DNA from: Zoogloea sp.
GTDB lineage: Bacteria > Pseudomonadota > Gammaproteobacteria > Burkholderiales > Rhodocyclaceae
Strand: one strand, 5' to 3'
DNA length: 64,000 nucleotides
NCBI RefSeq assembly: GCF_041915215.1
Contig: NZ_JAYSBV010000012.1
Numbering within the stretch: position 1 is the stretch's first letter; the number at the start of each line of letters is the position of its first letter. The translations under genes were made by a program, and so were the position numbers. The notes under the pieces are model-generated. The model worked only from the letters and a program-made list of their open reading frames with translations, did not search any database and was not told where the DNA came from. This document shows positions 1,998-64,000 of this stretch, piece after piece.

Positions 1998-3455
1998 TCA
2001 AGCTCCAGTACCGCCAACAGTCAAACCATCAATCCGCAGAGTGGGCTGGCCCACCCCCACCGGCACGCTCTGGCCGTCCTTGCCGCAGGTGCCCACCCCC
2101 GGGTCCAGGGCCAGATCGTTGCCGATCATCGAAACCCGGGTCAGGCAGTCCGGGCCGTTACCAATCAGGGTTGCACCCTTCACCGGCCGCGTCACCTTGC
2201 CGTCCTCAATCAGATAGCATTCTGAGGTGGAAAATACAAACTTGCCGGAGGTGATGTCCACTTGGCCGCCACCGAAGTTCACCGCATACAGGCCGTTTTT
2301 AACCGAGGCGATGATTTCGGCGGGATCATGCTGGCCGGGGAGCATGATGGTGTTGGTCATGCGCGGCAGGGGCAGATGGGCGAAGGATTCGCGCCGCCCG
2401 TTGCCGGTAGGCTCCACGCCCATCAGACGGGCGTTGAGGGTGTCCTGCATGTAGCCGGTCAGGATGCCGTCTTCGATCAGCACAGTGCGCCGGGTCGGGT
2501 TGCCCTCGTCGTCGATAGTGAGGGAACCGCGCCGATCCGGCAGGGTGCCGTCATCCACCACCGTCACACCCTTGGCGGCCACCTGCTGGCCGATGCGACC
2601 ACTGAAGGCGGAGCTTTCCTTGCGGTTGAAATCGCCCTCCAGCCCGTGGCCGATGGCCTCGTGGAGCAGGATGCCGGGCCAGCCATTGCCCAGCACCACG
2701 GTCATGCTGCCGGCAGGTGCGGGGCCGGCATCCAGGTTAACGCGGGCCTGGTGCACAGCAGCCCGGGCGAAGCTGGTGAGCACTTCATCGGTGAAATAGC
2801 CGTAGTCGTAGCGCCCGCCGCCGCCACCGGAGCCCTGCTCGCGGCGGCCCTTGTCTTCCATGATCACCGACACCGACACCCGCACCAGGGGGCGCACATC
2901 AGCCGCCAGGTGGCCGTCGCTGCGGGCCACCAGCACCACTTCCCAGCTTCCCACCAGGCTGGCCATGACTTCCTTGACGCGGGGGTCTTCGGCCCGGGCC
3001 AGGCCTTCGAGGCGCTCCAGCAGCTTCACCTTGGCGATGTCATCCAGGGAGCCCTGGGGGTTGTCGGCCCGGTAGAGGGCCAGGGGCGGCTTCTTGGCCG
3101 GCGAAAGGGGCACGCACTTGCGCCGCCCGGCAGCGGCAATCGCCCGGGTCGCATCGGCGGCATCCTTGAGGGCCTTCAGGCTGATGTCGTCGGAGTAGGC
3201 GAAGGCGGTCTTCTCGCCGGTGATGGCCCGCACCCCCACGCCCTGCTCAATGTTGAAGCTGCCGGATTTGACGATGCCTTCTTCCAGGCTCCAGGCCTCG
3301 GAACGGTGGTACTGGAAGTACAGATCGGCGTAGTCGAGCTTGTGGCGGTAGAGCTTGCGGAACACCTTGTCCAGGTCTTCCAGATCCAGGTCATAGGGCT
3401 TCAGCAACAGCTTGCTGGCGGTCTTGAGATGACTACTGGGGGCGTTTTTGCTCAT
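1998..3455 (-). CDS. tldD: metalloprotease TldD
   Basis: [12 protein letters not shown] motif. Full-length similarity to TldD. Start taken at MSKNAPSS by analogy to the E. coli N-terminus; the ORF extends 7 codons further to 3476. Confidence 0.85.
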
Positions 3456-3591
3456 GGTCTTGGGGAAATGTCGCAAGTTGGGCAGAAGGTGAACGCTTCT
3501 TCAACGCTTCTGCCAGTTTGAATCCGGAGGCCGGGCACAGTGCCCGGCCCGCTTGTGCATGTAGGTTCAGACGTTCAGGTTCGGGGCCGGC

Positions 3592-4407
3592 TCACTTCAC
3601 GCGGCGATGCTCCAGGGCGGGCAGGCTGGCCCGGACTTCGGCAATCCGGTTGCGATCCACGTTGCCCCTCACCACCCCGGGCCCTTCGGGCAGGCAACTC
3701 AGCACATCACCCCAGGGGTCGATCAGCATGCTGTGGCCCCAGGTGCGGCGCCCGCTCGGGTGCACGCCCCCCTGGGCGCTGGCCAGCACGTAGCACTGGT
3801 TTTCGATGGCCCGGGCGCGCAACAGGGTTTCCCAATGGGCCCGGCCTGTGGTGTAGGTGAAAGCGGCGGTGAGGATGATCAGATTCACCTCGCCCATCGC
3901 CCGGAACAGCTCGGGGAAGCGCAGGTCGTAACAAATCGACACCCCCACCCGGCCGCAGGGCGCCTCGAAGGTGACGACCTCGTTGCCTGCCTCGATGGTG
4001 GCAGATTCGTCGTAACGCTCGTTGCCCTTCACAAAGCCGAACAGGTGCAGCTTGTCATAAGACGCCACCCGACGCCCCTGATCGTCGAAGATCACGGTGG
4101 TGTTGCGCACCTTGTCGGCCGCCTCGGCCTCCAGGGGCAGGCTGCCGCCCACCACCCAGATCCGGTGCCGGCGGGCCGCATCGGCCAGAAAATTCTGGAT
4201 GGGGCCGCCAGTGCGCAACTCACGAATGCGCACCTTGGCCGACTCGTCGGGGCTGATGAGGGGGAAATACTCAGGCAGGGCCACCAGGCGGGCGCCTTGG
4301 TCGGCGGCCTCGGCAATCAGGCGCTCGGCCTCCTTCAGGTTGGCCTCCACATCGGGGCCGGAGATCATCTGGGCCGCCGCCACCGGCCATACCGGATTCA
4401 TCGTCAT
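3592..4407 (-). CDS. carbon-nitrogen hydrolase (nitrilase superfamily) protein
   Basis: ALPEYF glutamate region and ICYDLRFPE catalytic cysteine region. Overlaps the yhdP start by 4 nt. Confidence 0.8.
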   Translation of the reverse strand: MTMNPVWPVAAAQMISGPDVEANLKEAERLIAEAADQGARLVALPEYFPLISPDESAKVRIRELRTGGPIQNFLADAARRHRIWVVGGSLPLEAEAADKVRNTTVIFDDQGRRVASYDKLHLFGFVKGNERYDESATIEAGNEVVTFEAPCGRVGVSICYDLRFPELFRAMGEVNLIILTAAFTYTTGRAHWETLLRARAIENQCYVLASAQGGVHPSGRRTWGHSMLIDPWGDVLSCLPEGPGVVRGNVDRNRIAEVRASLPALEHRRVK

Positions 4408-7400
4408 GGGGTTTTCCCTTCAGGAACAGCGGAAGGCAGGGCCCGGGCCGACAGTTTATCCACCTTGGGATCGGACCAGCTTCCGGTGATTGCATACTCA
4501 AAACTGAACAACTGCTCGACCGGGTCGCGCAGGGCTTTCTGAACCAGATAGGTGGCCAGGCCCACCGCCGGGTGCACCGCCCCGACTCCGGTGGCCAGCA
4601 CCGAGCCCACCGCCACCGATTCGGTCAAGGTGGGCTGCACCTTGACCTTCAGGTTTTGGGACTCCCGGGCCAGATCCGCATCCCCGGTAATGAACACCCG
4701 GGCCGCAGCACCCGTCAGGGCCAGATCTTCGGTGTGCAGCACACCGCCATTCATCTGGATGCTACCGGAAATGCGGTCGAAGGCGAATCCTTCGGAAAAC
4801 ACATCGCGGAAATCCAGCGTGACCCGGCGCGGCAAGGCCTGCAGGCTCAGCACCCCCAGCAGACGCCCCACCCCGGGCTCCAGGCGGGTGAACTGGCCCT
4901 TGTCCACATGCAGCTGCATATGGCCGTTGAGGCTCGCGAAATCCAGATCCACCGGAGCGCCCTGCCAGCCCAACTCCCCCTCCAGGGTGGTATGGGCCTG
5001 GCGTACCGCTTCCGGGTAACCCAGGCGGGCCAGCATGCGCTCGGGGCTCGCCACATCCAGCCGGACATTGATCCGGGTTTCCTCCCGGCTCCCCGGACGC
5101 CAGCTGCCCTTGCCGCTCAGGCTGCCGTCGGGGTTGCTGATCAGAAACTGATCCAGGCTCCAGACATCGCCCTGGTTGGAAGCCTTCAGCTCCAGTTTGC
5201 CCAGCTGATGCCCCCGAATCACCAGACTATCGGCGCTGATGTCCAGCCCTGGCAACTCGGCCAGTTTTTCCTTGCTCTCCTGGCTCGGGGGCGGCATCCC
5301 GTTCCCGGTGGCACTGCCCAGCACCAGCTGGCGGAAACGGCCTTGCAGGCGGCCCCGGCCCTGATCGCGCCAGATGAACTCGCCGGTGGCCTCCCGGCTT
5401 TGGAGCCGGGCCTGCCAGCCGCCCTGCTCCATCACCGCCCGCAGATTGGCGTCATGCAGATGCTGGCCCAGCAGTTGCAAATCGCTTGCCTTGAGGGCCA
5501 GCCCGGACAAGGGAAAACCGCTCCCAGCGGCTGGCGCATGCTCATGCCCCCCGGCCTGGGCCTGGGGAGGGGGATTACCGGCCAGGGCCTTGCGCCAGGC
5601 ATCCGCATCCAGGGTATCGGCACTCGCCGCAATCATCACCCCCTGGTCGGGGATGCGCAGGGCTTCGTTCAGGGCCAGCCCACCCCGCTGGATGAGGCTG
5701 CGATTGCCCTCCCGCCGGCGAATGAACTGGGCCTGAAAACCGCCCCCCGCACTCAGCTTGAGGGTATCGCCCGGCACGCCCGGCGTAGCCAGCAGCTCAA
5801 AGTGGAAAGGCAGCGGCTGGCTCGCAGTTTTGCCAAAAGGCGGCGGCAGGCTGGCCGTAACCCCCTGCAAGCTACTGTCCAGCACAAACTCCACGCCCCC
5901 CGTATGGGGCACCGTGATCGTGCCCTTCCAGGGCGCGGTGCCGCTCATGTGGTCCAGCAAGGGCAGATCCAGCTCCTTGCGCAGGGCCGCCATGCCCACA
6001 CTGCCCTGGGCATTGAGCAGCACGCCCCCGTCGGGACGGGTGCCGCCACTCACACTGACCGCCTCGCCAAACACCCGGCCCACGCCCTGGCGGATCGTCA
6101 TCTGGCTTTCGGTAAAGCCCACCTTGGCCCCCGCCTCCACAATCACCGGCAAGGCCGGGTCGGGCTGGAAGCGGTTGTGGGCAAACTGAAACTCGCCCTT
6201 GACCCGGGATTTGGGCAGATCGTGCAGGGGCAGGCTCAGGTGCAGATCCAGGCTCCCCGCACCTTCTGAGCGAAACGGATCGGTAAAGTGGCCGATCCAG
6301 CCGCCCACCGGGCTCTCGCCCAGAAAACGCAAAAACTCCTGGGTGGGCCCCTGGGCCTGGCCGTGGATGGCCAGCACCGCATCGTTCTTGAAATCCGGCA
6401 ACACCACGCTCACATCGCGCAGCTCCACCCCCAGGGTCTTGCCGCGTCGGGCCTTGATGTTCATGCCAGCGCCCTCGAACACCAGATCACCCTGAATGTC
6501 TTCGATCCGGGGCCAGCCGGGGGCGTATTCGAGCAGCCCATCCATCACCTTCACATTCACCCGGAACAGCCCATCTGCCGAGTCGCGGAAGGGAAAATGG
6601 GACAGATCACCCTTCAGCACCAGCCGGGCATCGGGCGCCTTGCCGCCCAGCAGGCCGCGCTCCAGCCAGTCCCTGGCGCCCTTGCTCACCACGCCGGGCA
6701 TGTAGCGCCACACGGCGGTGCTGTCCGCATCCTGCAAACGGGCCTGAAGATCAATCACCCCCGGCGTGTCGGGGGTGGCCCGGTAGCGTCCGCTGGCCGT
6801 GCCCCGGGCATCCCGGTTGGCAAAGGTGGCCTTGCTCAGATTGAGTTCCAGCAGGCCTTCGGGGTGAGTCCAGGTACCTTCAGCGGCAAGCGCATCCAGG
6901 GCCAGACGTGGCTCGGGGAAGACCTTGGGCATCACGAGGGCCGCATCCTTGCCCGTCAGCACGAAATGGCCGCCCTTCTCACTGCCCTCGATCCGCCCCG
7001 AGAGGCCCGCAAAGCCTGGCCAGGCTTCCAGAGGCGCAATGCCCAGGCCCGAGAAACGCGCATCCACCGTATAGCTGGCCAGATCGCCCCCGCTATCCAG
7101 CGCCCATTTCAGGCTGAGCGGCCCCACCTGCCCGGTGGGCGCCAGGGTGTCCAGCCGGCTGCGCACGCCCACCGGCAGGGGCAGACGCCCGGCCAGTTCG
7201 GAGAGCACCGCCAGATCCAGCTGGCTGGCCACCAGCTCACCGCGCCCGCCGTGGCTGCCCGCCGGGGCCAACAGGCGCAGGAAGAAATCGGTAGGCGGCA
7301 GCACCAGCCCATCCCGGGTTTCGATGGACAACTGGCGGGCGCTCGCTTCCCGCAACCCGCCCTCATCCCGGTAGCGCAAGCGCCCGGAAGCCCGATTGAA

Positions 7401-8297
7401 GGGGATGTCCTCCAGATCTTTGGCGAGCCGGATGCGTGCATCCTTGAGGGAAAAATCGGCGGTAATGGACTGAACCCGACCATGCCCCAGGCTCAGCCAG
7501 GCCTTGAGCCCACCTGAGCCCTCCGCATCCAGTGGGTAATCCACCCAGGGGCGCCAGGCCCCCAGCTTGGCGTAATCGAGACCCGCAAACAGTTCTCCCC
7601 GCCAGCTGGCGCCATGCTTGAGATCGCTGCCGTGCAGCTCGCCGCGCACATCCAGCATGGTGGCCAGGGCCTCGGGCGGGTGGGCGGTCAGCCCGAAGCG
7701 GTGCAGCGCGCCCCGGTTTTCGAGCCGGAAATCCACCTCATCCAGGGCCAGGGGCGGGGCCTTGCGCAGCCCGTCGCGCCATTCCAGGCGGGCATGGCGG
7801 ATCAACACCTCCCGCTGGCTCAGGAGCCAATCGGCAAAAGCCCCATCGCTTTCGCCGGAGGTTTGCACCGGCAGGCCGGCCACAAACAGTTGCCCGTCCC
7901 CATCGCGCCGGATGCTCAGTTCGGGGGCATCGATCTCCAGCCGGTAGAGCTTGAGGCGCATCAGGGGCAAGGACACCCAGGCCACCTCAGCCTCCACCCG
8001 ATCCAGGGTGAGGGCAGGCAGCCCGGCCTTGTCATGAATCGTGAAGCCTTCGAGGTGCAGGCGCGGACGCCAGCCATCCAGGCTCGCCCCCAGCCCCCGG
8101 ATCTGCACCGGCAGACCAATGGAATGGGCAATCAGGCCCGCAATCTCGCCCCGGTACTCGGGCAGATGGGGCAAGACCAGATGCCGCACCCCAAGAAAGC
8201 TCAGGCCACACAGGAAATACACGCCCCCCCCCACCCACAACAACAGGCGCAGGGTCTTGCGGATTCGCCGGAACACGGAGAGGCGCAACTTAGCCAC
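4404..8297 (-). CDS. yhdP: YhdP/AsmA-family inner-membrane-anchored large periplasmic protein
   Basis: 1297 aa with an N-terminal TM helix and repetitive beta-rich body. Conserved tldD-yhdP neighbourhood, as in enterobacteria. Confidence 0.75.
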   Translation of the reverse strand: MAKLRLSVFRRIRKTLRLLLWVGGGVYFLCGLSFLGVRHLVLPHLPEYRGEIAGLIAHSIGLPVQIRGLGASLDGWRPRLHLEGFTIHDKAGLPALTLDRVEAEVAWVSLPLMRLKLYRLEIDAPELSIRRDGDGQLFVAGLPVQTSGESDGAFADWLLSQREVLIRHARLEWRDGLRKAPPLALDEVDFRLENRGALHRFGLTAHPPEALATMLDVRGELHGSDLKHGASWRGELFAGLDYAKLGAWRPWVDYPLDAEGSGGLKAWLSLGHGRVQSITADFSLKDARIRLAKDLEDIPFNRASGRLRYRDEGGLREASARQLSIETRDGLVLPPTDFFLRLLAPAGSHGGRGELVASQLDLAVLSELAGRLPLPVGVRSRLDTLAPTGQVGPLSLKWALDSGGDLASYTVDARFSGLGIAPLEAWPGFAGLSGRIEGSEKGGHFVLTGKDAALVMPKVFPEPRLALDALAAEGTWTHPEGLLELNLSKATFANRDARGTASGRYRATPDTPGVIDLQARLQDADSTAVWRYMPGVVSKGARDWLERGLLGGKAPDARLVLKGDLSHFPFRDSADGLFRVNVKVMDGLLEYAPGWPRIEDIQGDLVFEGAGMNIKARRGKTLGVELRDVSVVLPDFKNDAVLAIHGQAQGPTQEFLRFLGESPVGGWIGHFTDPFRSEGAGSLDLHLSLPLHDLPKSRVKGEFQFAHNRFQPDPALPVIVEAGAKVGFTESQMTIRQGVGRVFGEAVSVSGGTRPDGGVLLNAQGSVGMAALRKELDLPLLDHMSGTAPWKGTITVPHTGGVEFVLDSSLQGVTASLPPPFGKTASQPLPFHFELLATPGVPGDTLKLSAGGGFQAQFIRRREGNRSLIQRGGLALNEALRIPDQGVMIAASADTLDADAWRKALAGNPPPQAQAGGHEHAPAAGSGFPLSGLALKASDLQLLGQHLHDANLRAVMEQGGWQARLQSREATGEFIWRDQGRGRLQGRFRQLVLGSATGNGMPPPSQESKEKLAELPGLDISADSLVIRGHQLGKLELKASNQGDVWSLDQFLISNPDGSLSGKGSWRPGSREETRINVRLDVASPERMLARLGYPEAVRQAHTTLEGELGWQGAPVDLDFASLNGHMQLHVDKGQFTRLEPGVGRLLGVLSLQALPRRVTLDFRDVFSEGFAFDRISGSIQMNGGVLHTEDLALTGAAARVFITGDADLARESQNLKVKVQPTLTESVAVGSVLATGVGAVHPAVGLATYLVQKALRDPVEQLFSFEYAITGSWSDPKVDKLSARALPSAVPEGKTP

Positions 8298-54995: not shown

Positions 54996-56180
54996 ATGCA
55001 AGTCAAGAAACTCACCGACCTCGACGTCAACGGCAAGCGCGTCTTCATCCGCGCTGACCTGAACGTGCCCCAGGACGACGCCGGCAACATCACCGAAGAC
55101 ACCCGCATCCGCGCCTCCATTCCCTCCATCAAGTACGCCCTGGACGGCGGCGCTGCCGTGATGGTCACCTCCCACCTGGGTCGCCCCACCGAAGGCGAAC
55201 TCAAGGCCGACGACACCCTGGCCCCCGTGGCCGTGCGTCTGGGCCAGCTGCTGGGCAAGCCCGTGCGCCTGATCCAGAACTGGGTTGACGGTGGCTTTGA
55301 AGTGGCCCCGGGCGAAGTGGTGCTGCTCGAAAACTGCCGCTGCAACAAGGGCGAAAAGAAGGACAACGAAGAGCTGGCCAAGAAAATGGCCGCCCTGTGC
55401 GATGTCTACGTGAACGATGCCTTCGGTACCGCCCACCGGGCCGAAGCCACCACCCACGGCATCGCCCGCTTCGCCCCCGTGGCCTGCGCCGGCATCCTGA
55501 TGGGCGCCGAAATCGACGCCCTGGGCAAGGCCCTGCACGCCCCGGCCCGCCCCCTGGTGGCCATCGTGGGTGGTTCCAAGGTCTCTTCCAAGCTGACCAT
55601 CCTCAAGTCCCTGGCCGACAAGGTGGACCAACTGATCGTCGGTGGCGGCATCGCCAACACTTTCCTGCTGGCCTCCGGCAAGCGCATCGGCGAATCCCTG
55701 GCCGAGCCCGAGCTGGTCAAGGAAGCCCAGGCCATCATCGACATGATGAAGGCCCGTGGCGCCGAAGTGCCCCTGCCCGTCGACGTGGTGGTGGCGGATG
55801 AAGTCTCCGCCATGGCCCGCGCCAACAAGGTGTCGGTGGATGACGTCGGCCCCCACGACCGCATTCTGGACGTGGGCCCCAAGACCGCTGCCAAGCTGTC
55901 TGACATCATCGCCCACGCAGGCACCATCGTCTGGAACGGCCCGGTGGGCGTGTTCGAACTGCCCCAGTTTGCTGGCGGCACCAAGATGATGGCTTCCGCC
56001 ATTGCCCACTCCGAGGCTTTCTCGATTGCCGGTGGTGGCGACACCCTGGCCGCCATCGCCAAGTTCGACATCGCGGGCGATGTGGGTTACATCTCCACCG
56101 GCGGCGGCGCCTTCCTCGAGTTCCTGGAAGGCAAGACCCTGCCCGCCATCGCAGCCCTGGAAGAACGCTTCAAGGACTGA
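54996..56180 (+). CDS. pgk: phosphoglycerate kinase
   Basis: [26 protein letters not shown]-terminus. 394 aa. Confidence 0.9.
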
Positions 56181-56226
56181 ACGCCGCCAAGCTGCCGTTA
56201 GCACACCGACGGCATCCAACGGCCAT

Positions 56227-56251
56227 GCGACCCTGCGGGGTCGCATTTTTT
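56227..56251 (+). terminator. Rho-independent terminator (GCGACCC-TGCG-GGGTCGC + T6)
   Basis: Hairpin and T-run after pgk. Confidence 0.65.
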
Positions 56252-56326
56252 GTACACGACATTTCCAACAGCACGCACAATTGCGGGAATCCCTAAACTT
56301 GCCTTGTCTGCGTTGGCCCCTCCTTC

Positions 56327-57520
56327 ATGCGTGATTCGGTTCCAGGCCTTGCTTATCCCTCCAACCGTCTGCTGGGCGCCGTACTTCTGTTCCTGATCCT
56401 GGATCTAAGCGTTTTGCTGATCAATCTATGGATTGCGAACGAGGTCGCCTGCAATGCGGTCGCCATCAACCTGGCGGGCCGCCAGCGCATGCTTTCCCAA
56501 CAAATCAGCAAGAATCTACTCCTGCTGACCCAAACCGACCCCCAGCAAGTCCCACCGGGCACCCGCCAGGAACTCAACCAGGGCTTGTACCTCTTCCAGC
56601 AAACCTTGAGCGCCTTTGCCGAAGGCAGCACCGCCACCGACACCACCCTCCAGCCGGTAGCCCTACGCGCCGTCGAGGGCGAAGCGGCGCTCCTGGTGAG
56701 TCGCACCCGCCTCCTGATTCAACCCCTCACCCGCCTGCTCCACAGCGCTCATCCAGGGCCCACCTCAGACCCCAGCGTACTGCAGCCCGCCAACCGCTAT
56801 ATGGTGGAACATAATCGGGAAATCCTCGATCTCATGAACCGCCTGACCTGGCGCTTGGAAGAGGATGCCCGCCAGCGCACCCGAACCCTCCAGATCGTGC
56901 AGGTGTGTGCTTTCACCCTGGCTATTGGCAATTTCGCAGCCATCATGATCTGCATGCTCAGACGCATGCGCCAAGCCGAACGCCAACGGCGCGAATGGCA
57001 AGATGCGGCTTACCACGATCCGCTCACCGGCCTCCTCAATCGCCATGGCCTCGAAACCAAGGCCCGTCACCTGCTCGCCGATGGGCACACCCAGGGCACC
57101 CTGTTGCTGCTGGATCTGGACGGCTTCAAACCCATCAACGATCTCCACGGCCACCCCACCGGGGATCTGGTATTGAAATACGTGGCCCAGGCCCTCCGGC
57201 AGGTGGCACGCAATACCGACCTGCTCGCCCGCATGGGCGGCGATGAATTCGTCCTCATTTGCCCTCGCATCGACCAAGCCGATGCGGTGCAGCATCTATG
57301 CAACCGGCTGCTGGATGCCATTGCCCGAGTCAGCCTGCCCGATCACCCCATTCATCTGCGGGTCAGCATTGGCGCAGCCTTCTTTCCTCGCCAAGCCGCC
57401 CACTTGCCCGAATTGATCAGAATCGCCGATCAGGCCATGTATCTTTCCAAACGGGACGGGGGGCAACGCTGGAGCCTGGCCCCCCAGAGCGCCCCTGTCG
57501 CAAACCCGACAGCCCGCTAA
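56327..57520 (+). CDS. membrane sensor diguanylate cyclase (NarX/PilJ-type P-box sensor domain + GGDEF)
   Basis: AINLAGRQRMLSQQISKNLLLL sensor motif between two TM segments. GGDEF motif RMGGDEFVLI. Confidence 0.8.
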   Translation: MRDSVPGLAYPSNRLLGAVLLFLILDLSVLLINLWIANEVACNAVAINLAGRQRMLSQQISKNLLLLTQTDPQQVPPGTRQELNQGLYLFQQTLSAFAEGSTATDTTLQPVALRAVEGEAALLVSRTRLLIQPLTRLLHSAHPGPTSDPSVLQPANRYMVEHNREILDLMNRLTWRLEEDARQRTRTLQIVQVCAFTLAIGNFAAIMICMLRRMRQAERQRREWQDAAYHDPLTGLLNRHGLETKARHLLADGHTQGTLLLLDLDGFKPINDLHGHPTGDLVLKYVAQALRQVARNTDLLARMGGDEFVLICPRIDQADAVQHLCNRLLDAIARVSLPDHPIHLRVSIGAAFFPRQAAHLPELIRIADQAMYLSKRDGGQRWSLAPQSAPVANPTAR

Positions 57521-57589
57521 GCCTCTCGCCTGCATCCTCCGCGTCAATACTCGGGTTTTGCCTGCAAAACCACATGGCACCCCGCTTGC

Positions 57590-58981
57590 TTGGCTCTCCA
57601 TCTCTGGAGAGCCCCCATGAAACATCACCTCGATTGGTCGTCCTATGAAACCGCCGGGCAGGGCGATGCCTATGCCGGCATCCCTGCCACTGGCGGCGAT
57701 TTTGCCCGGGCGGTGGCGGTCTGCATCAGCGACCGCCAGTGCCAGCGCAGCCCCAAGGGGGTCATGTGCCCCAGCTTTCGCGCCACCCAAGACCCGGTTC
57801 AATCGCCCGGCGGGCGGGTGGTGCTGCTCAAGGCCGCCCTGAACGGGGAGCTGGGGCTCACGCCCTTCACCCACCCCGAGCTCGCCGCCGCGATGGATCT
57901 GTGCGTGGGCTGCAAGGGCTGCAAGCGGGAATGCGCCAACCAGGTGGACATGGCCGCCCTCAAGATCGAATACCAAGCCCAGCGCAACGCCCTGAACGGC
58001 GTGCGCCTGCGGGATCGGCTGTTTGCCGCCATGCCCCGCCTGCTGGCCCGCCACCCGGGCAGCGTGCGCAACCTGATCAAGCTGCGGGATCGCGTCCCCG
58101 GAGCAGCCCAGCTGGCCGAGCGCCTGGTGGGGATTGCCGCCCAACGCCAACTCCCCCTGCCCGCCCCCCAGCCCTTTGTAGCGCCCGAGCCCCAGGGAGA
58201 AGGACGCACGGTGATCCTGTTTGTGGACACCTTTGCCCGCCATTTTTCCCCCAGCATCGCCGATGCAGCCTGCCAGGTGCTGACGCGGGGCGGCTATCGG
58301 GTGCAGGTGCTCGAACCCGCCCCGGATGATGCAGAAGCCGACCGCCCCCTGTGCTGCGGACGCACCTATCTTTCCCTGGGCCAGGTCGAGGCCGCCCGCC
58401 ACGAAGCCCAGCGCATGCAGCGAGCCCTGCGCCCGGCCCTGGCCAGTGGGCATCCCATCATCGGGCTGGAACCCTCCTGCATCCTCTCGCTGCGGGACGA
58501 TCACCTCAAGCTGGGGCTGGGCCCGGAAGCCGAAGCCCTGGCCCGCCAGGTTCATTTGCTTGAAGAATTCATCGCCCGGGAACACGACCGCAAGCAGCTC
58601 CAACTACCGCTTCAACCTCTGCCGGGCCCCCGGTTGCTGGTGCATGGCCACTGCCACCAGAAAGCCGTGGGGGCCATGAAATCCATGCGCAAGGTGCTAC
58701 GCCTGATCCCGGCTCTGGACTTCGAATTCATCGAAAGCAGCTGCTGCGGGATGGGGGGCAGCTTCGGGCTGGAGGCCGAGCACGCGGCCCTGGCCGATGC
58801 CATGGGCGAGCTGGCCCTGTTTCCGGCGATCAGGAACGCGCCCACTTCGCCTCTGCTCGCCAACGGCTTTTCCTGTCGTGGCCACTGTGAAGAAGCCACC
58901 GGGCGTCGGGGGCTGCATGTGGCCGAAATCCTGCTCCACAGCCTGGACGGCACCGCCCTCAGCCCGACCGAAGTGGCTTGA
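57590..58981 (+). CDS. (Fe-S)-binding protein with CCG cysteine-rich domains (GlcF/GlpC-like), stand-alone
   Basis: CVGCKGCKRECAN ferredoxin-like cluster motif and C-terminal CCG motifs (HGHCHQKA..., SSCCGMGGSF). No adjacent FAD-binding partner. Confidence 0.55.
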   Translation: MALHLWRAPMKHHLDWSSYETAGQGDAYAGIPATGGDFARAVAVCISDRQCQRSPKGVMCPSFRATQDPVQSPGGRVVLLKAALNGELGLTPFTHPELAAAMDLCVGCKGCKRECANQVDMAALKIEYQAQRNALNGVRLRDRLFAAMPRLLARHPGSVRNLIKLRDRVPGAAQLAERLVGIAAQRQLPLPAPQPFVAPEPQGEGRTVILFVDTFARHFSPSIADAACQVLTRGGYRVQVLEPAPDDAEADRPLCCGRTYLSLGQVEAARHEAQRMQRALRPALASGHPIIGLEPSCILSLRDDHLKLGLGPEAEALARQVHLLEEFIAREHDRKQLQLPLQPLPGPRLLVHGHCHQKAVGAMKSMRKVLRLIPALDFEFIESSCCGMGGSFGLEAEHAALADAMGELALFPAIRNAPTSPLLANGFSCRGHCEEATGRRGLHVAEILLHSLDGTALSPTEVA

Positions 58982-60659
58982 TCTGCCCGATCTGCTCAAA
59001 ACTCAAGCCAAAGCGGGCCAGATACTTGCGCAGGCGGTCTGCATCATTGGGCTGCTTGCGCCCCTGCCGGGATACCGCAAACAAGTGGCGCCCGGCCTCC
59101 GAGAGGCTGGATGCCCGGGCGCAGACCTCCACCACCGCCCGCAGCTGGACTTGATCGAACACATCCAGCGCCGCCCAGCCCCTTTCCCCCAGCAGCGCAA
59201 TCATGGGATCGACGGCGCCCCCATCGACATCGAGAACCTTCTCCCCTTCTCCGCAGGCTGCAGGGTGCCACGTGGCCTGGAGCCGCCCAATCTCTTCTTC
59301 CACCCCGGCCTCGGTGATCCGCCCGGCGTTCGCCAGGGTCGCCATGCGGGTAAGCGAGGCGCCCAGCTCCCGGAAGTTACCCCGCCAGCAGGCCTCCGGC
59401 CCGGTGGCAAACGCCAAGTAGCGGCGCCGGGCTTCGGCGTTAAAGCGCACCTGCTCGCCGTACTCCCGGGCATGGCGGGCCAGTTCAAAATCCAGATTCG
59501 GCTCGATGTCCTCACGCCGCCCGGCCAAACCCGGGAGTTGGAAAGTCCAGAGGTTGATGCGCGCAAACAGATCTTCCCGAAACAGCCCTTCACTCACCCG
59601 CTGCCGCAAATCCCGATGGGTGCCGGCGATCAGCTGAAAATCGCTCTCCACCTCCCGATCTGAACCAAAGGGGAAGAAACGTTTCTCCTCGATGGCCTTG
59701 AGCAACATGGCCTGCTCATCCAGCCCCAGTTCGCCGATTTCATCCAGAAAGAGCACGCCCCCATGGGCCGCCCGCAGCAGCCCGGCCCGCTCCCCAAGGG
59801 CCCCCGTAAAAGCCCCCTTCACATGGCCAAACAGGGTGGACATGGCGGCATCGCCCCGCAGGGTGGCGCAATTCACCTCCACAAAACGCCCTTCCAGGCG
59901 CTGATGCTGGGCCTTGAGCGTGTGGATGCGTCGGGCCAGAAAAGACTTGCCCGCGCCCGTCGGCCCCACCAACAGCATGGGCGCCCGGGAACGCCCTGCC
60001 ACCCGCTCAATCTGCTCGATCATCCGGTTAAAGGGCTCGTTTCGGGTCGCGATGCCCGCCTTCAGGAAGCTCAGGTTATCGGCCTGCTCCCGGGCAAAAC
60101 GCTGGGCGATCTGGTCGTAGCGCGACAAATCCAGGTCGATGATGGCATGCCCACCCACGGTTTTGGAGACCTCCTCCTGACGTGGCGGGAAAGTCTGGAT
60201 CAGACGCGCCGGCAGATAACGGGCCTCCGTCAGCAAAAACCAGCAGATCTGGGCCACATGGGTGCCGGTGGTGATGTGCACCAGATAATCCTCGGCCTCG
60301 GGCGCAAAGGAATAGGCCCGGGTGAAATCATGCAGCCGGGTGTAAACCTCTTCAAAATCCCAGGGGTCATGCAGATCCAGGGCATGGAGCACCACCTCCA
60401 CATGGGGTGCCAGCAGCGCAATATCCGCCCGCACCCGCGCCGCCAGCCCCAGGCTGGCCGGAGCATGGATCAAATCCAGTCGATCCACCGGCAAATCCGG
60501 CTGCAGGCAAAGCCCCACCGTAGGACGCCACTTGCCAAAGCGCCTCCCCTTGCGCCCCATGAAATCCAACTGGGTGCCCACAAAGCCGATAACCACCCGC
60601 TTCTTGCCCCCAGCCGGGATCAGCCGCCCATCCACGTCCATGTCCATGCTCACACTCAT
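58959..60659 (-). CDS. rtcR: sigma-54-dependent transcriptional regulator RtcR (CARF + AAA+ sigma-54 activator)
   Basis: Near-colinear match to E. coli RtcR (FGFVGT...KWRP, HNPWDFEEVY, IHITTGTHVAQICWFLL, GAFVEVNCATLRGD, FLDEIGELG, DADRLRKYLARFGL). Confidence 0.9.
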   Translation of the reverse strand: MSVSMDMDVDGRLIPAGGKKRVVIGFVGTQLDFMGRKGRRFGKWRPTVGLCLQPDLPVDRLDLIHAPASLGLAARVRADIALLAPHVEVVLHALDLHDPWDFEEVYTRLHDFTRAYSFAPEAEDYLVHITTGTHVAQICWFLLTEARYLPARLIQTFPPRQEEVSKTVGGHAIIDLDLSRYDQIAQRFAREQADNLSFLKAGIATRNEPFNRMIEQIERVAGRSRAPMLLVGPTGAGKSFLARRIHTLKAQHQRLEGRFVEVNCATLRGDAAMSTLFGHVKGAFTGALGERAGLLRAAHGGVLFLDEIGELGLDEQAMLLKAIEEKRFFPFGSDREVESDFQLIAGTHRDLRQRVSEGLFREDLFARINLWTFQLPGLAGRREDIEPNLDFELARHAREYGEQVRFNAEARRRYLAFATGPEACWRGNFRELGASLTRMATLANAGRITEAGVEEEIGRLQATWHPAACGEGEKVLDVDGGAVDPMIALLGERGWAALDVFDQVQLRAVVEVCARASSLSEAGRHLFAVSRQGRKQPNDADRLRKYLARFGLSFEQIGQIKPLRSG

Positions 60660-60859
60660 CGCTCGGTCTACGTCTATGCACGTTTGTGACTATCGCAGAC
60701 AGCTTAGCTAAATTTATAAACACTGCTCAAGTTTGTTATCTATTTGTATAAAAAACCCACTTTGCGCCAGCCTCAAAGCCTCCGCGTAGGCACCTATCAA
60801 AAAATAAAATCATTTAAAAACATACAGATAAAAACAAAACCAGGCCCAAGCAAGCATTC

Positions 60860-60875
60860 TGGCACGCTCTTCGCA
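60860..60875 (+). promoter_or_regulatory. candidate sigma-54 (-24/-12) promoter TGGCACGCTCTTCGCA
   Basis: GG and GC elements at consensus spacing (TGGCACG-N4-TTGCW, 14/16 match). Preceded by a 200-nt AT-rich region. Lies divergent to rtcR, where the RtcR-activated promoter is expected. Confidence 0.5.
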
Positions 60876-60887
60876 ATAGCATGCGGG

Positions 60888-61170
60888 ACGGTATCCAACC
60901 GCCAGCCTACGGACAGGGCTTTCCCGCCCGTCGGTACGCCACTGCCAGGGTCTCAAAGCTGAGTTGCAGGGGCGCATGCCGCACCGGTTGGAACCGCCAC
61001 GTCAGCACGCCCGTTGGGGGTGATCGGGTTCGATTCCCGACGTGCAGCTTGCAGCACTCTCGGTAGATCAGGCCTTACCGGCCTGAGCGGGTTCGACTCC
61101 CGCTTTAGCGCTGTGTCCCAGCGCCTTCAGTGCAGTACCCCACCGGTTGTGGCTAGACCTCGGTCTGCCC
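60888..61170 (+). ncRNA. candidate structured RNA / long leader with two tRNA-like T-arm modules (possible Y-RNA-like tRNA mimic)
   Basis: TCGGGTTCGATTCCCGA at 61024-61040 and GCGGGTTCGACTCCCGC at 61087-61103 (5-bp stems with 7-nt TTCGAYT loops). D-loop-like CTCGGTAGATCAG at 61058-61070. Hairpin AGGCC-TTACC-GGCCT at 61070-61084. No credible ORF; no canonical acceptor stem. Confidence 0.3.
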
Positions 61171-61344
61171 CCCGGGCTGAGCCGGTCTCCGCGTCTCCTC
61201 CGATGGCCGGATGCCCTCCGCCTATGCCGTGCCCACTCGGGCGGCCTGGGCCCAGAGCATCCACCCATCCGCGGCACGCCCCACCCGCCCAGCCCGGGCC
61301 CCACCGGCCAGCCCCAATTCGCCCTGTTCCTTTGGAGAACCCTG

Positions 61345-62490
61345 ATGTGGCAAAGCTTTCTAATCAAGAAAAATGAATACGCTATCCTGTTCCAGAGCGG
61401 AGACTTCAAGGCCATTCTGACGCCCGGCCATTATCGTTTCATCGATCCCTTACGGCGCCTGACCCTCCAGACTTGGCAAGCGGGCTGCCTGATGGATAAC
61501 GAAGACTGGATGGATTGGCTGCGCGAACATCACCCCGAAGAAGTCGCACGCCATTTCGATGATCTGAGCCTCGGCGAACACGAAGCCGGACTGCTCTACG
61601 TGGATGATCTGCTGGTTGAAATACTTCCCCCAGGCCAACGCGTGGCGTTCTGGAAAGGCTCCCGCCAACGCCGACTACTGTCTGTGGATCTGCGCGACCA
61701 ACTCAGCCTGCCCAGCGAGCTGGCACTCCAGCTCCAGCAACCCGCCCTGCGTCATCAAGCCCTCCGGGGGCAAAATTCAGTGCTCATGGCCCAGATCCCG
61801 GCTTACCACCAGGGCATTCTGAAAGTGGATGGGCAGGTGCAACGCTTGCTGCCACCTGGCATCGAATATTTCTGGCGCTTGCGTCACGAGGTACAGGTGG
61901 AACTGGTGGACACCCGATTGCAAAGCATGGAGGTCAGCGGCCAGGAAATCCTGACCCGAGACAAGGTAAACCTGCGGATTAACTTGGCCGCCAACTGGCA
62001 ATACACCGACGTGCTCCAAGCTCATGCAGCCCTCAGCCGACCGACAGACTTCATATATCGCGAACTCCAGTTCGGCCTGCGAGCAGCCGTGGGCACCCGC
62101 AGTCTGGATGAGCTGCTCGAAAACAAGCAGATCCTTGATGAGCTTATTAGTCAGCACATGGCTCGCCAACTGAACGGTCTGGGCCTGGTCGTGGGGAGCC
62201 TGGGGGTGAAAGACATCATTCTCCCCGGAGAAATGAAAACCATCCTGAGCCAGGTCGTGGAAGCTCAAAAAGCCGCCGAAGCCAATGTGGTACGACGCCG
62301 GGAAGAAACCGCCGCCACCCGGGCCCTGCTCAATACTGCCAAGGTGATGGAAGACAACCCCATCGCCCTGCGCTTGAAAGAACTCGAAACCCTGGAGCGG
62401 GTGGCCGAAAGAATCGACCGAATTTCAGTTTTCGGAGGACTGGATCAAGTGCTGAATGGTTTGATCCACATTCCCACCCGCCAAGGCTAA
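61345..62490 (+). CDS. SPFH/band-7 (slipin-like) domain protein
   Basis: Band-7 core (KVNLRINLAANWQY...ILPGEMKTILSQVVEAQKAAEANVVRRREETAA). RBS GGAGAA. Sits between the structured leader and rtcB. Confidence 0.75.
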   Translation: MWQSFLIKKNEYAILFQSGDFKAILTPGHYRFIDPLRRLTLQTWQAGCLMDNEDWMDWLREHHPEEVARHFDDLSLGEHEAGLLYVDDLLVEILPPGQRVAFWKGSRQRRLLSVDLRDQLSLPSELALQLQQPALRHQALRGQNSVLMAQIPAYHQGILKVDGQVQRLLPPGIEYFWRLRHEVQVELVDTRLQSMEVSGQEILTRDKVNLRINLAANWQYTDVLQAHAALSRPTDFIYRELQFGLRAAVGTRSLDELLENKQILDELISQHMARQLNGLGLVVGSLGVKDIILPGEMKTILSQVVEAQKAAEANVVRRREETAATRALLNTAKVMEDNPIALRLKELETLERVAERIDRISVFGGLDQVLNGLIHIPTRQG

Positions 62491-62533
62491 GCGCCAGGCC
62501 CATCCATAACAACAAGGAAAAAGGACAATACCC

Positions 62534-63751
62534 ATGGATCACGATTTGCTCCACGCCCCAGGCGCCCATCCCATCAAACTATGGACCCACGGCGTTCCGG
62601 TCGAGGAAGATGCCCGCAAGCAACTTATCAACACCGCCCGCATGCCTTTCATCTTCAAGCACCTGGCGGTGATGCCGGATGTGCATCTGGGAAAGGGATC
62701 AACCATCGGTAGCGTGATTCCCACCCAGGGCGCCATCATTCCGGCGGCGGTTGGCGTGGATATCGGCTGCGGCATGATGGCCGCCCGTACCAGCCTCAAG
62801 GCGGCTGATCTGCCAGACCATCTGTTCGGGCTACGCACCGCCATTGAGGCGGCTGTTCCCCACGGACGTACTGCCCAGCGCGGAATCCGCGACAAGGGCG
62901 CCTGGGGAGAAGCGCCCCATGAAGTGGATCAAATGTGGGCGCACTTAGAACCGGGCTTCAAGCGCATCACCGAGAAATATCCCCGGCTCGAAAAGACCAA
63001 CAACCACCTGCATCTGGGAACCCTGGGCACCGGGAACCATTTCATCGAGGTCTGCTTGGATGAAGGCGAAAACGTGTGGTTCATGCTGCACTCCGGCTCC
63101 CGGGGGGTGGGAAACGCCATCGGAACCCTATTCATCGAACTCGCCCAACAAGACATGCGTCAGCATATGGCCCAGCTACCGGACAAGGATCTGGCGTATT
63201 TCACCGAAGGTAGCCAGCACTTTGAAGATTACGTGGAGGCCGTCGGCTGGGCTCAGGATTACGCCCGCCGTAACCGGCAGGTGATGATGGCGCGCGTGGT
63301 GGCCGCCGCTCGCAGCATCATTGCCAAACCTTTCGATGCACAAGTGGAGGCCGTCAATTGCCACCACAACTACGTGCAGCAAGAAACCCACTTCGGCGCC
63401 CAGGTATTGGTCACCCGCAAAGGAGCCGTTTCAGCCCATAAAGGTGAACTGGGTATCATCCCCGGCTCCATGGGGGCTCGCAGCTACATCGTGCGGGGGC
63501 TGGGAAATGAGGAAAGTTTCTGCTCCTGCAGCCACGGTGCAGGCCGCGTGATGAGCCGCAACGAAGCACGCCGCCGCTTCAGCATCGCCGATCAGGAACA
63601 GGCCACCGCCCACGTGGAATGCCGCAAGGACAGCGAGGTGATCGACGAAATCCCGATGGCCTACAAAGACATCGACGCGGTCATGGCCGCCCAACGGAGC
63701 CTGGTGGAAGTCGTCCATACCCTGCGCCAGGTGATCTGCGTGAAGGGGTAA
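62534..63751 (+). CDS. rtcB: RNA-splicing ligase RtcB
   Basis: 405 aa with MPDVHLGKGSTIGSV, GVDIGCGM, NHFIE, HSGSRG and CNHN motifs of RtcB (3'-phosphate/5'-OH RNA ligase). Confidence 0.9.
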   Translation: MDHDLLHAPGAHPIKLWTHGVPVEEDARKQLINTARMPFIFKHLAVMPDVHLGKGSTIGSVIPTQGAIIPAAVGVDIGCGMMAARTSLKAADLPDHLFGLRTAIEAAVPHGRTAQRGIRDKGAWGEAPHEVDQMWAHLEPGFKRITEKYPRLEKTNNHLHLGTLGTGNHFIEVCLDEGENVWFMLHSGSRGVGNAIGTLFIELAQQDMRQHMAQLPDKDLAYFTEGSQHFEDYVEAVGWAQDYARRNRQVMMARVVAAARSIIAKPFDAQVEAVNCHHNYVQQETHFGAQVLVTRKGAVSAHKGELGIIPGSMGARSYIVRGLGNEESFCSCSHGAGRVMSRNEARRRFSIADQEQATAHVECRKDSEVIDEIPMAYKDIDAVMAAQRSLVEVVHTLRQVICVKG

Positions 63752-63880
63752 ACGCATAGAACCCACATAAAGCCGGCATCGAGCATCAGCTAAAAATCAG
63801 CTATTTTCAATGCCGGCTTTTTCGTACATCAGATTTTTGCACCGTAATCTAAACGCCAAATATCTAAACGCCCAACGCAA

Positions 63881-63912
63881 AAAACCCCACTGCCATTTGG
63901 CAGCGGGGTTTT
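63881..63912. terminator. bidirectional Rho-independent terminator (AAAA-CCCCACTGCC-ATTT-GGCAGCGGGG-TTTT) shared by rtcB and the convergent rrn operon
   Basis: 10-bp stem flanked by an A-run and a T-run, so a U-tract is available on either strand. Confidence 0.55.
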
Positions 63913-63921
63913 GCATGGGGT

Positions 63922-64000
63922 AGCCTGACGATGACCTACTTTCACGCACGCGTGTGCACTATCATCGGCGCGGTCTCGTTTCACGGTCCTGTTCGGGATG
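63922..64000 (-). rRNA. rrf: 5S rRNA, 3' portion (the gene continues beyond the window end)
   Basis: The reverse complement reads ...CCCGAACAGGACCGTGAAACGAGACCGCGCCGATGATAGTGCACACGCGTGCGTGAAAGTAGGTCATCGTCAGGCT. This matches the conserved proteobacterial 5S core (CCGAAC...GTGAAACG...GCCGATGGTAGTG...AGTAGG...CAGGC). Confidence 0.7.

Follow-up and report, generated by a model that had tools for sequence, protein, structure and literature searches.

The window, as we call the whole 64,000-nucleotide stretch of Zoogloea sp. DNA analysed here, carries a variant of the rtc RNA-repair locus. In this variant, the regulator gene rtcR is divergent from an operon that consists of a long non-coding leader, a gene for an SPFH (Band-7) protein and the RNA ligase gene rtcB. 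A Band-7/b7a-tRNA/RtcB system is said to have been predicted by comparative genomics by Burroughs and Aravind, writing in Nucleic Acids Res in 2016. The locus in the window has the following parts.

58959-60659, minus strand: rtcR, with a CARF-type RtcR domain and a sigma-54 AAA+ activator domain
60860-60875, plus strand: sigma-54 (-24/-12) promoter found by motif search, TGGCACG-N4-TCGCA, TGGCACGCTCTTCGCA
about 60886-61344, plus strand: non-coding leader, a predicted structured RNA of about 460 nucleotides, from alignment and covariation
61345-62490, plus strand: SPFH/Band-7 ('slipin') gene, 381 amino acids, Pfam Band_7 at 93 bits
62534-63751, plus strand: rtcB (RNA 3'-phosphate/5'-OH ligase), 405 amino acids, Pfam RtcB at 439 bits

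The product of rtcR was recognised by Pfam (RtcR, 268 bits; Sigma54_activat, 170 bits), NCBIfam (RNA_repair_RtcR, 813 bits against a cut-off of 650) and PADLOC (RtcR--CARF_AAA_HTH, 845 bits). RtcR alone was recognised by PADLOC at this locus, the SPFH and RtcB proteins not being catalogued defence proteins. In metagenome gene calls the start of rtcR lies four codons downstream, giving a product of 562 amino acids. The sigma-54 motif has two matches in the 64 kb where 0.22 were expected, and transcription from the divergent promoter is predicted to start near 60886. We took the ATG at 61345 as the start of the SPFH gene; homologues begin at that position, GGAG lies upstream at 61334-61337, and the mechanically called TTG at 61147 is not the start. 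A 'slipin family protein' of Zoogloea sp. matches the SPFH protein with 100% identity. The gap between this gene and rtcB, which has the same orientation, is 43 nucleotides and contains no promoter-like site. The rtcB product matches RtcB proteins of solved structure, from Thermus, Pyrococcus and human, at E = 1e-33 to 1e-25.

The locus was compared with 80 related loci, gathered from one-genome-per-species collections by means of an alignment of SPFH homologues. They belong to Beta- and Gammaproteobacteria and come from Accumulibacter, Azoarcus, Thiobacillus, Dechloromonas, Burkholderia, Ralstonia, Pseudomonas, Erwinia, Hafnia, Proteus, Xenorhabdus, Neisseriaceae and Comamonadaceae, among others. 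A divergent rtcR was found 600-730 nucleotides upstream of the SPFH gene in about 67 of the 80 loci, and rtcB downstream of it in 72. The promoter also recurs: 63 loci have a GGCAC-N5-TCGCW site at a conserved distance from the SPFH start codon, in the same relative position as in the window. Two GTTCGAnTC T-loop motifs, 70-75 nucleotides apart, are present in most loci, and in about 70, from different orders, tRNA-like modules occupy a fixed position between the sigma-54 promoter and the SPFH gene. A preliminary description of this DNA had placed RtcR divergently from a sigma-54 promoter, followed by an SPFH gene and rtcB, and had suggested a variant RNA-repair module. All of this is upheld, the last point because the order recurs in most of the 80 loci, the relatives' modules reach the Rfam tRNA gathering score and the leader covaries. 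Judged by sequence conservation, this rtc variant is real and widely conserved in Beta- and Gammaproteobacteria.

Relatives often carry further genes. The nucleotidyltransferase RlaP (PF10127) is encoded downstream in 38 of the 80 loci and RtcA (PF01137) in 28; a small zf_Tbcl protein lies between SPFH and RtcB in 25, and a HEAT-repeat protein is another addition. Neither RtcA nor RlaP gave a tblastn match within the window (for RtcA, at E ≤ 1e-5 with the protein of locus L023 as query), and the zf_Tbcl and HEAT-repeat genes are also not in the window. Equally minimal loci were found in Burkholderia, Ralstonia and Proteus. The absence of rtcA is a trait of the window copy and of some others such as these, not of the family. 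The SPFH gene had been described as taking the place of rsr/rtcA, and this holds for the window, which lacks rtcA, and fails for the family, given the 28 loci with RtcA. The Ro60 homologue was rightly reported as missing from the locus, no TROVE domain being found among the ten best open reading frames (ORFs) of 457-681 amino acids.

Some relatives depart from the common layout. Leader and SPFH gene occur without a nearby RtcB in four loci: the neighbour is a 1085-amino-acid protein with weak HEAT repeats in L029, unrelated genes in L030, RlaP only in L068 (Hafnia), and an ORF with a weak, sub-threshold match to a ClpP-like SDH protease in L069. In three loci from metagenome-assembled genomes (MAGs) of termite-gut Betaproteobacteria (L033, L041 and L044, at about 6600-7830), the RtcB beside SPFH is a divergent paralogue, 31% identical to that of the window (Pfam RtcB, 205 bits). 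In an Azoarcus MAG (L042, 1334-2545) rtcB lies upstream of rtcR and not after SPFH. Three loci of Comamonadaceae and other Burkholderiales (L067, L072 and L074, at 2600-3800) have no rtcR upstream; in its stead, one to seven ordinary tRNA genes precede the leader by 1-2 kb. Two conserved operon ORFs without a Pfam match, of 215 amino acids (L023, 9714-10361) and 192 amino acids (L060, 7800-8378; also in L054, L056, L061 and L026), are sited among the RtcB, RlaP and RtcA genes.

The leader was analysed in an alignment of 30 leader sequences (A2), in which conservation spans its whole length. RNAalifold predicted 76 pairs on A2, 52 of them with compensatory changes. After curation the structure comprises 90 pairs in 15 helices, with 90.5% of cells paired against 36-45% when the partners were slid by 1-3 columns, and a covariation score of 0.406 against a slid maximum of 0.113. 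Both sides change at 63 of the 90 pairs, and none of 500 column shuffles attained any of the observed measures. Folded alone, the leader of the window has a z-score of -3.0. The covariation points to one large structured RNA spanning the whole leader, in which a 5' domain is followed by two tRNA mimics and then by a 3' domain that long-range helices close. Its predicted elements are as follows.

60904-60984, plus strand: 5' domain, defined by covariance model R1
60909-60935, plus strand: helix H2 of the 5' domain, with a conserved purine-purine mismatch
60936-60975, plus strand: extended hairpin H3 of the 5' domain
60976-60983 (A2 columns 107-114), plus strand: invariant AUGCCGC(A/C) of the 5' domain, AUGCCGCC, single-stranded in the family model
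61004-61046 (A2 columns 160-205), plus strand: tRNA-like module 1, of 'minihelix' type
61050-61137, plus strand: tRNA-like module 2, counterpart of b7a-tRNA, from model R2
61143-61307, plus strand: 3' domain, from A2 covariation and the single-sequence fold
61143-61147 with 61303-61307, plus strand: long-range helix LR0 (CCGGT/ACCGG), outer pairs covarying
61151-61169, plus strand: hairpin Pa of the 3' domain, GNRA-capped in the family
61171-61179 with 61290-61298, plus strand: long-range helix LR1, CCCGGGCTG/CAGCCCGGG, all 9 pairs covarying
61181-61288, plus strand: long irregular inner hairpin of the 3' domain

In the 5' domain, a hairpin flanked by the stem with the purine-purine mismatch is followed by the extended hairpin and then by the invariant, single-stranded AUGCCGCC. 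Model R1 of this domain scores 59 bits in the window (60904-60984, E = 1e-9), its sole match in the 64 kb. Across relatives, R1 gives a single match per locus, always upstream of SPFH, in 69 of the 80 loci, 41 of which were not used in building it. An alignment of 70 sequences of the domain has 92.4% of cells paired against 36-44% after sliding, with a covariation score of 0.543. R1 found no match in L071, L073, L076 and L077 (Enterobacterales, Orbus and Neisseriaceae loci), and the leader is therefore differently built there. A GYARYA motif ('GCAGUA', 61132-61137, A2 columns 325-330) is also conserved and single-stranded in the family model. A2 yielded no covarying partner for either AUGCCGCC or GYARYA; both may be protein-binding or tertiary-contact sites. 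Two pairings were tried and rejected. In a pseudoknot between AUGCCGCC and GGCGGCA of the 3' domain, column 443 varies uncompensated and columns 441-445 covary with 569-573 instead; the pairing of UGCCG with the 3' strand of LR0 proposed by RNAalifold has zero covariation and two counter-examples. In viral contigs the 5'-domain pattern occurred in at least 120 stretches, and all 80 that were returned were judged by R1 to be chance.

In the 3' domain, LR0 and LR1 are nested and enclose the GNRA-capped hairpin and the long irregular hairpin. The 3' domain of the window, taken alone, refolds to LR0, Pa, LR1 and the inner hairpin with a z-score of -4.57, and none of 200 shuffles was as good. Among 30 further leaders outside A2, the 3' segments have z-scores mostly between -2.5 and -8 (mononucleotide shuffles); in a control for long-range stacks, half of the GC-rich shuffles reached stacks of at least 7 bp, and only these z-scores and the 10-12-bp stacks are mildly supportive. 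Within the inner part, the long helix 438-452/562-576 shows more double changes than an alternative local CCGC/GCGG hairpin.

Both tRNA-like modules contain one of the two T-arm-like hairpins that had been noticed in the leader, and they lie 250-320 nucleotides upstream of the SPFH start codon. Module 1 has a 5-bp acceptor-like stem (GCACG/CGTGC), a small hairpin and a T-arm (TCGGG-TTCGATT-CCCGA, 61024-61040). It has no encoded CCA in the window; in about 13 of 30 relatives an encoded NCCA end abuts module 2, and in Pseudomonas module 1 is a full tRNA-like cloverleaf. Module 2 contains an anticodon-like hairpin (61069-61085), a T-arm (GCGGG-TTCGACT-CCCGC, 61087-61103) and an extra hairpin (61108-61124), closed by a helix of TGC.GCACT (61050-61058) with AGTGC.GTA (61129-61137). 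Its family form is a cloverleaf with a 5-bp acceptor stem, invariant D-arm and T-arm, and a variable anticodon loop. Changes on both sides were seen in A2 at all five anticodon-stem pairs and at three of the five pairs of the second T-arm, and the single-sequence fold of module 2 in the window has a z-score of -2.7.

Model R2, which describes the tandem tRNA-like region and was built from 26 relatives without the window, matches 61004-61111 with 39 bits (E = 2e-10), the next best match having 4.7 bits (E = 4.4). Most relatives score 60-123 bits; real tRNAs are also matched, at 24-58 bits. In module 2 of the window three of five acceptor pairs and two of four D pairs are broken. ARAGORN found no tRNA in 55000-64000, and the best Rfam alignments in the window are to tRNA-Sec (20 bits against a gathering score of 47) and, for module 1, a mascRNA-like match of 18.6 bits. 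The leader modules of relatives match the Rfam tRNA family with 37-56 bits against a gathering score of 29, and in many of them ARAGORN and Rfam call a tRNA-like gene at the position of module 2, with two in tandem in Pseudomonas. The anticodons of these calls are not conserved between loci, or the loop is of the wrong length, in which case the call reads 'tRNA-???'. A genuine tRNA gene was therefore rejected on the missing ARAGORN call, the sub-threshold Rfam scores, the acceptor stem of five pairs and the erratic anticodons of relatives: the leader modules are tRNA mimics and not decoding tRNAs. The sequence of the window copy is that of a minimal member with degenerate mimics, in which the cloverleaf appears partly lost. 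The built-in tRNA-mimic RNA of the preliminary description is thus present with its two modules, as part of an RNA far larger than two T-arm modules.

No family of Rfam 15 reached its gathering threshold anywhere in the window. At E ≤ 10, the region 60500-61500 gave only the weak tRNA-Sec and mascRNA-like alignments to the T-arm modules and no Y-RNA family, and the leaders of 13 relatives gave tRNA only. As the matches are confined to the tRNA-like parts, the 5' and 3' domains match no curated family. A coding role for the leader was also rejected. The leader had been said to run for about 450 nucleotides without any ORF; mechanically called ORFs do overlap it, and none is conserved as a protein. 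Those translated for tblastn (61014-61376, the extension from 61147, 60881-61066, 60744-60962 and, on the minus strand, 61068-61415) were not consistently syntenic, the matches being mostly scattered, of low complexity and on both strands, with the exception of a weak match in the L035 leader (35% identity, E = 1e-8).

The SPFH protein has no hydrophobic segment (maximum Kyte-Doolittle average over 19 residues of 1.35, inside the SPFH core), its N-terminus consists of beta strands, and no transmembrane or membrane-inserted segment was found. It is predicted from its sequence to be soluble, without a membrane anchor. Residues 1-145 form, in the structural model, two beta modules that repeat the SPFH N-terminal motif (predicted local distance difference test near 88), followed by the SPFH core and a C-terminal helix, so that the model has both an SPFH domain and a putative oligomerising helix. 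When searched with Foldseek, the whole model aligned to MVP with E = 1e-9 to 1e-6 over 410-440 columns. Homologues of about 520 amino acids (P0003, P0011, P0036 and P0088, from Xenorhabdus and others; loci L071, L073, L076 and L077) carry the N-terminal beta module, about 140 amino acids long, duplicated in tandem.

The features that follow and precede the rtc genes are given for completeness.

63770-63822, plus strand: hairpin terminator downstream of rtcB, AAGCCGGCAT ... ATGCCGGCTT, with a 30-nucleotide loop and then a T run, read from the sequence
63879-63912, both strands: bidirectional hairpin A6-CCCCACTGCC-ATTT-GGCAGCGGGG-T4 between the rtc operon and a convergent rRNA (rrn) operon, read from the sequence
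63923-64000, minus strand: 5S rRNA gene, 3' part only, truncated at the end of the window (30 bits, E = 1.5e-4)

The 63770-63822 terminator was missed by a simple scan because its loop exceeds 8 nucleotides. The operon had been described as stopping at a bidirectional terminator abutting an rrn operon; such a hairpin does lie beside the 5S gene, and the terminator closer to rtcB comes first. Since the 5S rRNA at the window end is on the minus strand, the rrn operon converges on rtcB. Metagenome contigs encoding the identical SPFH protein all end just past rtcB, as expected at an rRNA repeat. On the other side, a second sigma-54-type site, TGGCACCCCGCTTGCT (57575-57590, plus strand), lies directly 5' of the ORF 57590-58981. 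This ORF, whose 3' end overlaps that of rtcR by 23 nucleotides, encodes a 4Fe-4S dicluster protein (Fer4_8), perhaps GlcF-like.

We read the locus as a minimal member of an RtcR/sigma-54-controlled Band-7(SPFH)/b7a-tRNA/RtcB RNA-repair system with a putative RNA-protein scaffold or decoy mechanism, at a probability of roughly 0.75; it is filed as a minimal member because the arrangement matches the system described in 2016. The novelty implied in the preliminary description is much reduced, as the variant had already been described. What may go beyond the 2016 description is the fold of the whole leader with its 15 helices, together with an SPFH protein that lacks a membrane segment and has two extra N-terminal beta modules. 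Two reports bear on the rtc locus of P. aeruginosa, each noting a single fact: the SPFH protein PaFlo8 (PA14_60630) is embedded in it (PMC13086221), and PA4582, a conserved protein of unknown function, belongs to the rtc operon of PAO1 (PMC8619066).

The mechanism that we propose starts from RtcR. In Salmonella, RtcR responds to tRNA fragments (PMC7790460) and, by analogy, the CARF domain of the RtcR in the window would detect fragments of damaged tRNA that end in a 2',3'-cyclic phosphate, and RtcR would then activate the promoter. The leader would be transcribed first, in cis with the protein genes. Its tRNA-like modules would probably be excised or trimmed by tRNA-processing enzymes; a cut by RNase P at the 5' side of module 2 would leave an NCCA end after module 1, as many relatives encode. 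The soluble SPFH protein would oligomerise into a ring or cage with which the folded RNA associates. The RNA could then work as a scaffold or cofactor, guiding RtcB to tRNA-like substrates that have been broken, or could shield real tRNAs by acting as a decoy. A few loci keep leader and SPFH gene without RtcB, which suggests that no two components are bound more closely than the RNA and the SPFH protein.

Several points weigh against this reading. To our knowledge, the SPFH rings that have been described are membrane-bound, and the scaffold role given here to an SPFH protein is an analogy. The 39 bits of R2 in the window fall within the range of real tRNAs and the mimics are degenerate, so that a tRNA-specific function may be weakened in this copy. 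Three Pseudomonas leaders (P. aegrilactucae, P. donghuensis and P. entomophila; L034, L040 and L066, at about 4570-4670) match R1 with 53-59 bits and have neither a T-loop motif nor an R2 match; they keep the 5' domain without the mimics, which are therefore not indispensable to the role of the leader. The Discussion of a 2018 preprint (bioRxiv 10.1101/312249) treats RtcB, Band-7 and b7a-tRNA together, citing Burroughs & Aravind 2016, and states there that b7a-tRNA had not been validated. Our literature search found no experimental test of the SPFH/b7a-tRNA branch after that preprint.

The main rival is a purely cis-regulatory leader, which we consider unlikely. The leader would then be mainly a sensor or attenuator whose fold, or whose cleavage by tRNA-damaging nucleases, controls translation or stability of the SPFH-rtcB mRNA; alternatively, cleavage would yield cyclic-phosphate fragments that feed back on the CARF domain of RtcR, a protein already known to respond to tRNA fragments. 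Such a role would suit a structured RNA that continues unbroken to 15-40 nucleotides before the SPFH ribosome-binding site, with the 3' strand of LR0 close to that site and no terminator between RNA and genes, and it would suit the leaders that retain the 5' domain after loss of the mimics. However, no covarying, mutually exclusive pairings were found, the candidate switches involving AUGCCGCC lack covariation, and the ribosome-binding site is not sequestered in conserved helices. At about 460 nucleotides and 15 helices the leader also far exceeds known attenuators, and tRNA-like modules with an encoded NCCA resemble processed, stable products.

Much less probable still is that the T-arm modules are functionless, decaying remnants of tRNA genes, from an old cluster or the integration site of a mobile element, in a long 5' untranslated region. 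The failure of both window modules at the ARAGORN and Rfam tRNA thresholds, the broken acceptor and D stems of module 2, the real tRNA clusters 1-2 kb upstream of the leader in Comamonadaceae loci and the affinity of R2 for real tRNAs all fit decay. It is countered by the fixed position of the modules between promoter and SPFH gene across orders, by the covarying anticodon and T stems, and by flanking 5' and 3' domains that are conserved together with the modules. The anticodon loops are erratic yet the stems are kept, a pattern typical of a mimic under selection and not of drift. We give slightly less credence again to the idea that SPFH is an unrelated membrane-scaffold gene that merely neighbours rtcB, with a leader of its own that is unconnected to RNA repair. 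SPFH proteins are usually membrane organisers, and the few loci with leader and SPFH but no RtcB might be taken in its favour. The linkage to rtcR upstream and rtcB downstream in most of the 80 loci speaks against it, as do the other RNA-repair genes (RlaP and RtcA) that follow in the same direction, the absence of a transmembrane segment and the short, promoter-free gap before rtcB in the window.

A bolder form of the RNA-protein scaffold reading, which we hold only tentatively and think somewhat doubtful, is that the leader represents an uncatalogued class of large RNAs (about 430-500 nucleotides, one or two tRNA mimics between the 5' and 3' domains, at least 15 covarying helices, absent from Rfam 15) and forms with the soluble, repeat-bearing SPFH protein a cytoplasmic ribonucleoprotein cage that organises RtcB repair, as a bacterial counterpart of Ro/Y-RNA or of the vault. 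If such a cage exists, SPFH biology would reach beyond membranes, and Ro/Y RNA would be joined by a second case in which bacterial RNA quality control relies on tRNA mimicry. The system is present in tractable organisms, among them P. aeruginosa (PA4581-PA4585), Burkholderia, Erwinia and Proteus. A defined leader fold, two covariance models, predicted RNase P and CCA features and a soluble SPFH partner make direct experiments possible.

Compared with known systems, the locus shares with the canonical rtcR/rtcBA of E. coli the RtcR activator, the sigma-54 promoter and the RtcB ligase, but lacks an adjacent RtcA and has a 460-nucleotide structured leader and an SPFH gene between promoter and rtcB. 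Stomatin, HflK-HflC, QmcA and flotillin differ from its SPFH protein, which has no N-terminal membrane anchor, carries two extra N-terminal beta modules, has no NfeD partner and lies in a genomic context of RNA repair. The eukaryotic vault, with the SPFH-like shoulder of MVP, vault RNA and the TROVE protein TEP1, offers a possible structural parallel: as far as genes and a model tell, the SPFH protein of the window is likewise soluble, with beta modules in repeat, an SPFH-like domain and a long helix, and it is genetically linked to a structured RNA.

The rsr-yrlB-yrlA-rtcB-rtcA operon of Salmonella Typhimurium (Chen et al. 2013, 2014; Hughes et al. 2020) is closer. Both have a divergent RtcR and a sigma-54 promoter, an operon-encoded non-coding RNA with a tRNA-like domain (T-arm and D-arm mimicry), a gene for an RNA-binding or scaffolding protein upstream of RtcB, and an induction logic that runs through the CARF domain of RtcR. 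The role proposed here for RNA and SPFH would parallel that proposed for Ro60 and YrlA in rsr-yrlBA-rtcBA operons. Unlike that operon, the one in the window encodes SPFH and RtcB only, without TROVE/Ro60, and Rfam gave no match to YrlA or Y RNA. Its RNA comes before the scaffold gene and not after it, and the partner protein is an SPFH protein and not the Ro ring. Inspection of the leader did not reveal the Ro-binding motif of YrlA, GNCGAAN0-1G (PMC4201824).

The b7a-tRNA system remains the closest match. The window copy differs from it in having no RlaP, RtcA or zf_Tbcl and in the degeneracy of its tRNA mimics, and the RNA is much larger than one tRNA, with a 5' domain, two mimics and a 3' domain that contains long-range helices. 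Like that system, which is known from comparative genomics alone, it combines RtcB with an adjacent Band-7/SPFH protein and a predicted tRNA-like non-coding RNA, its relatives carry an RlaP-type nucleotidyltransferase and RtcA, and a scaffold or cofactor role in RNA ligation has been proposed.

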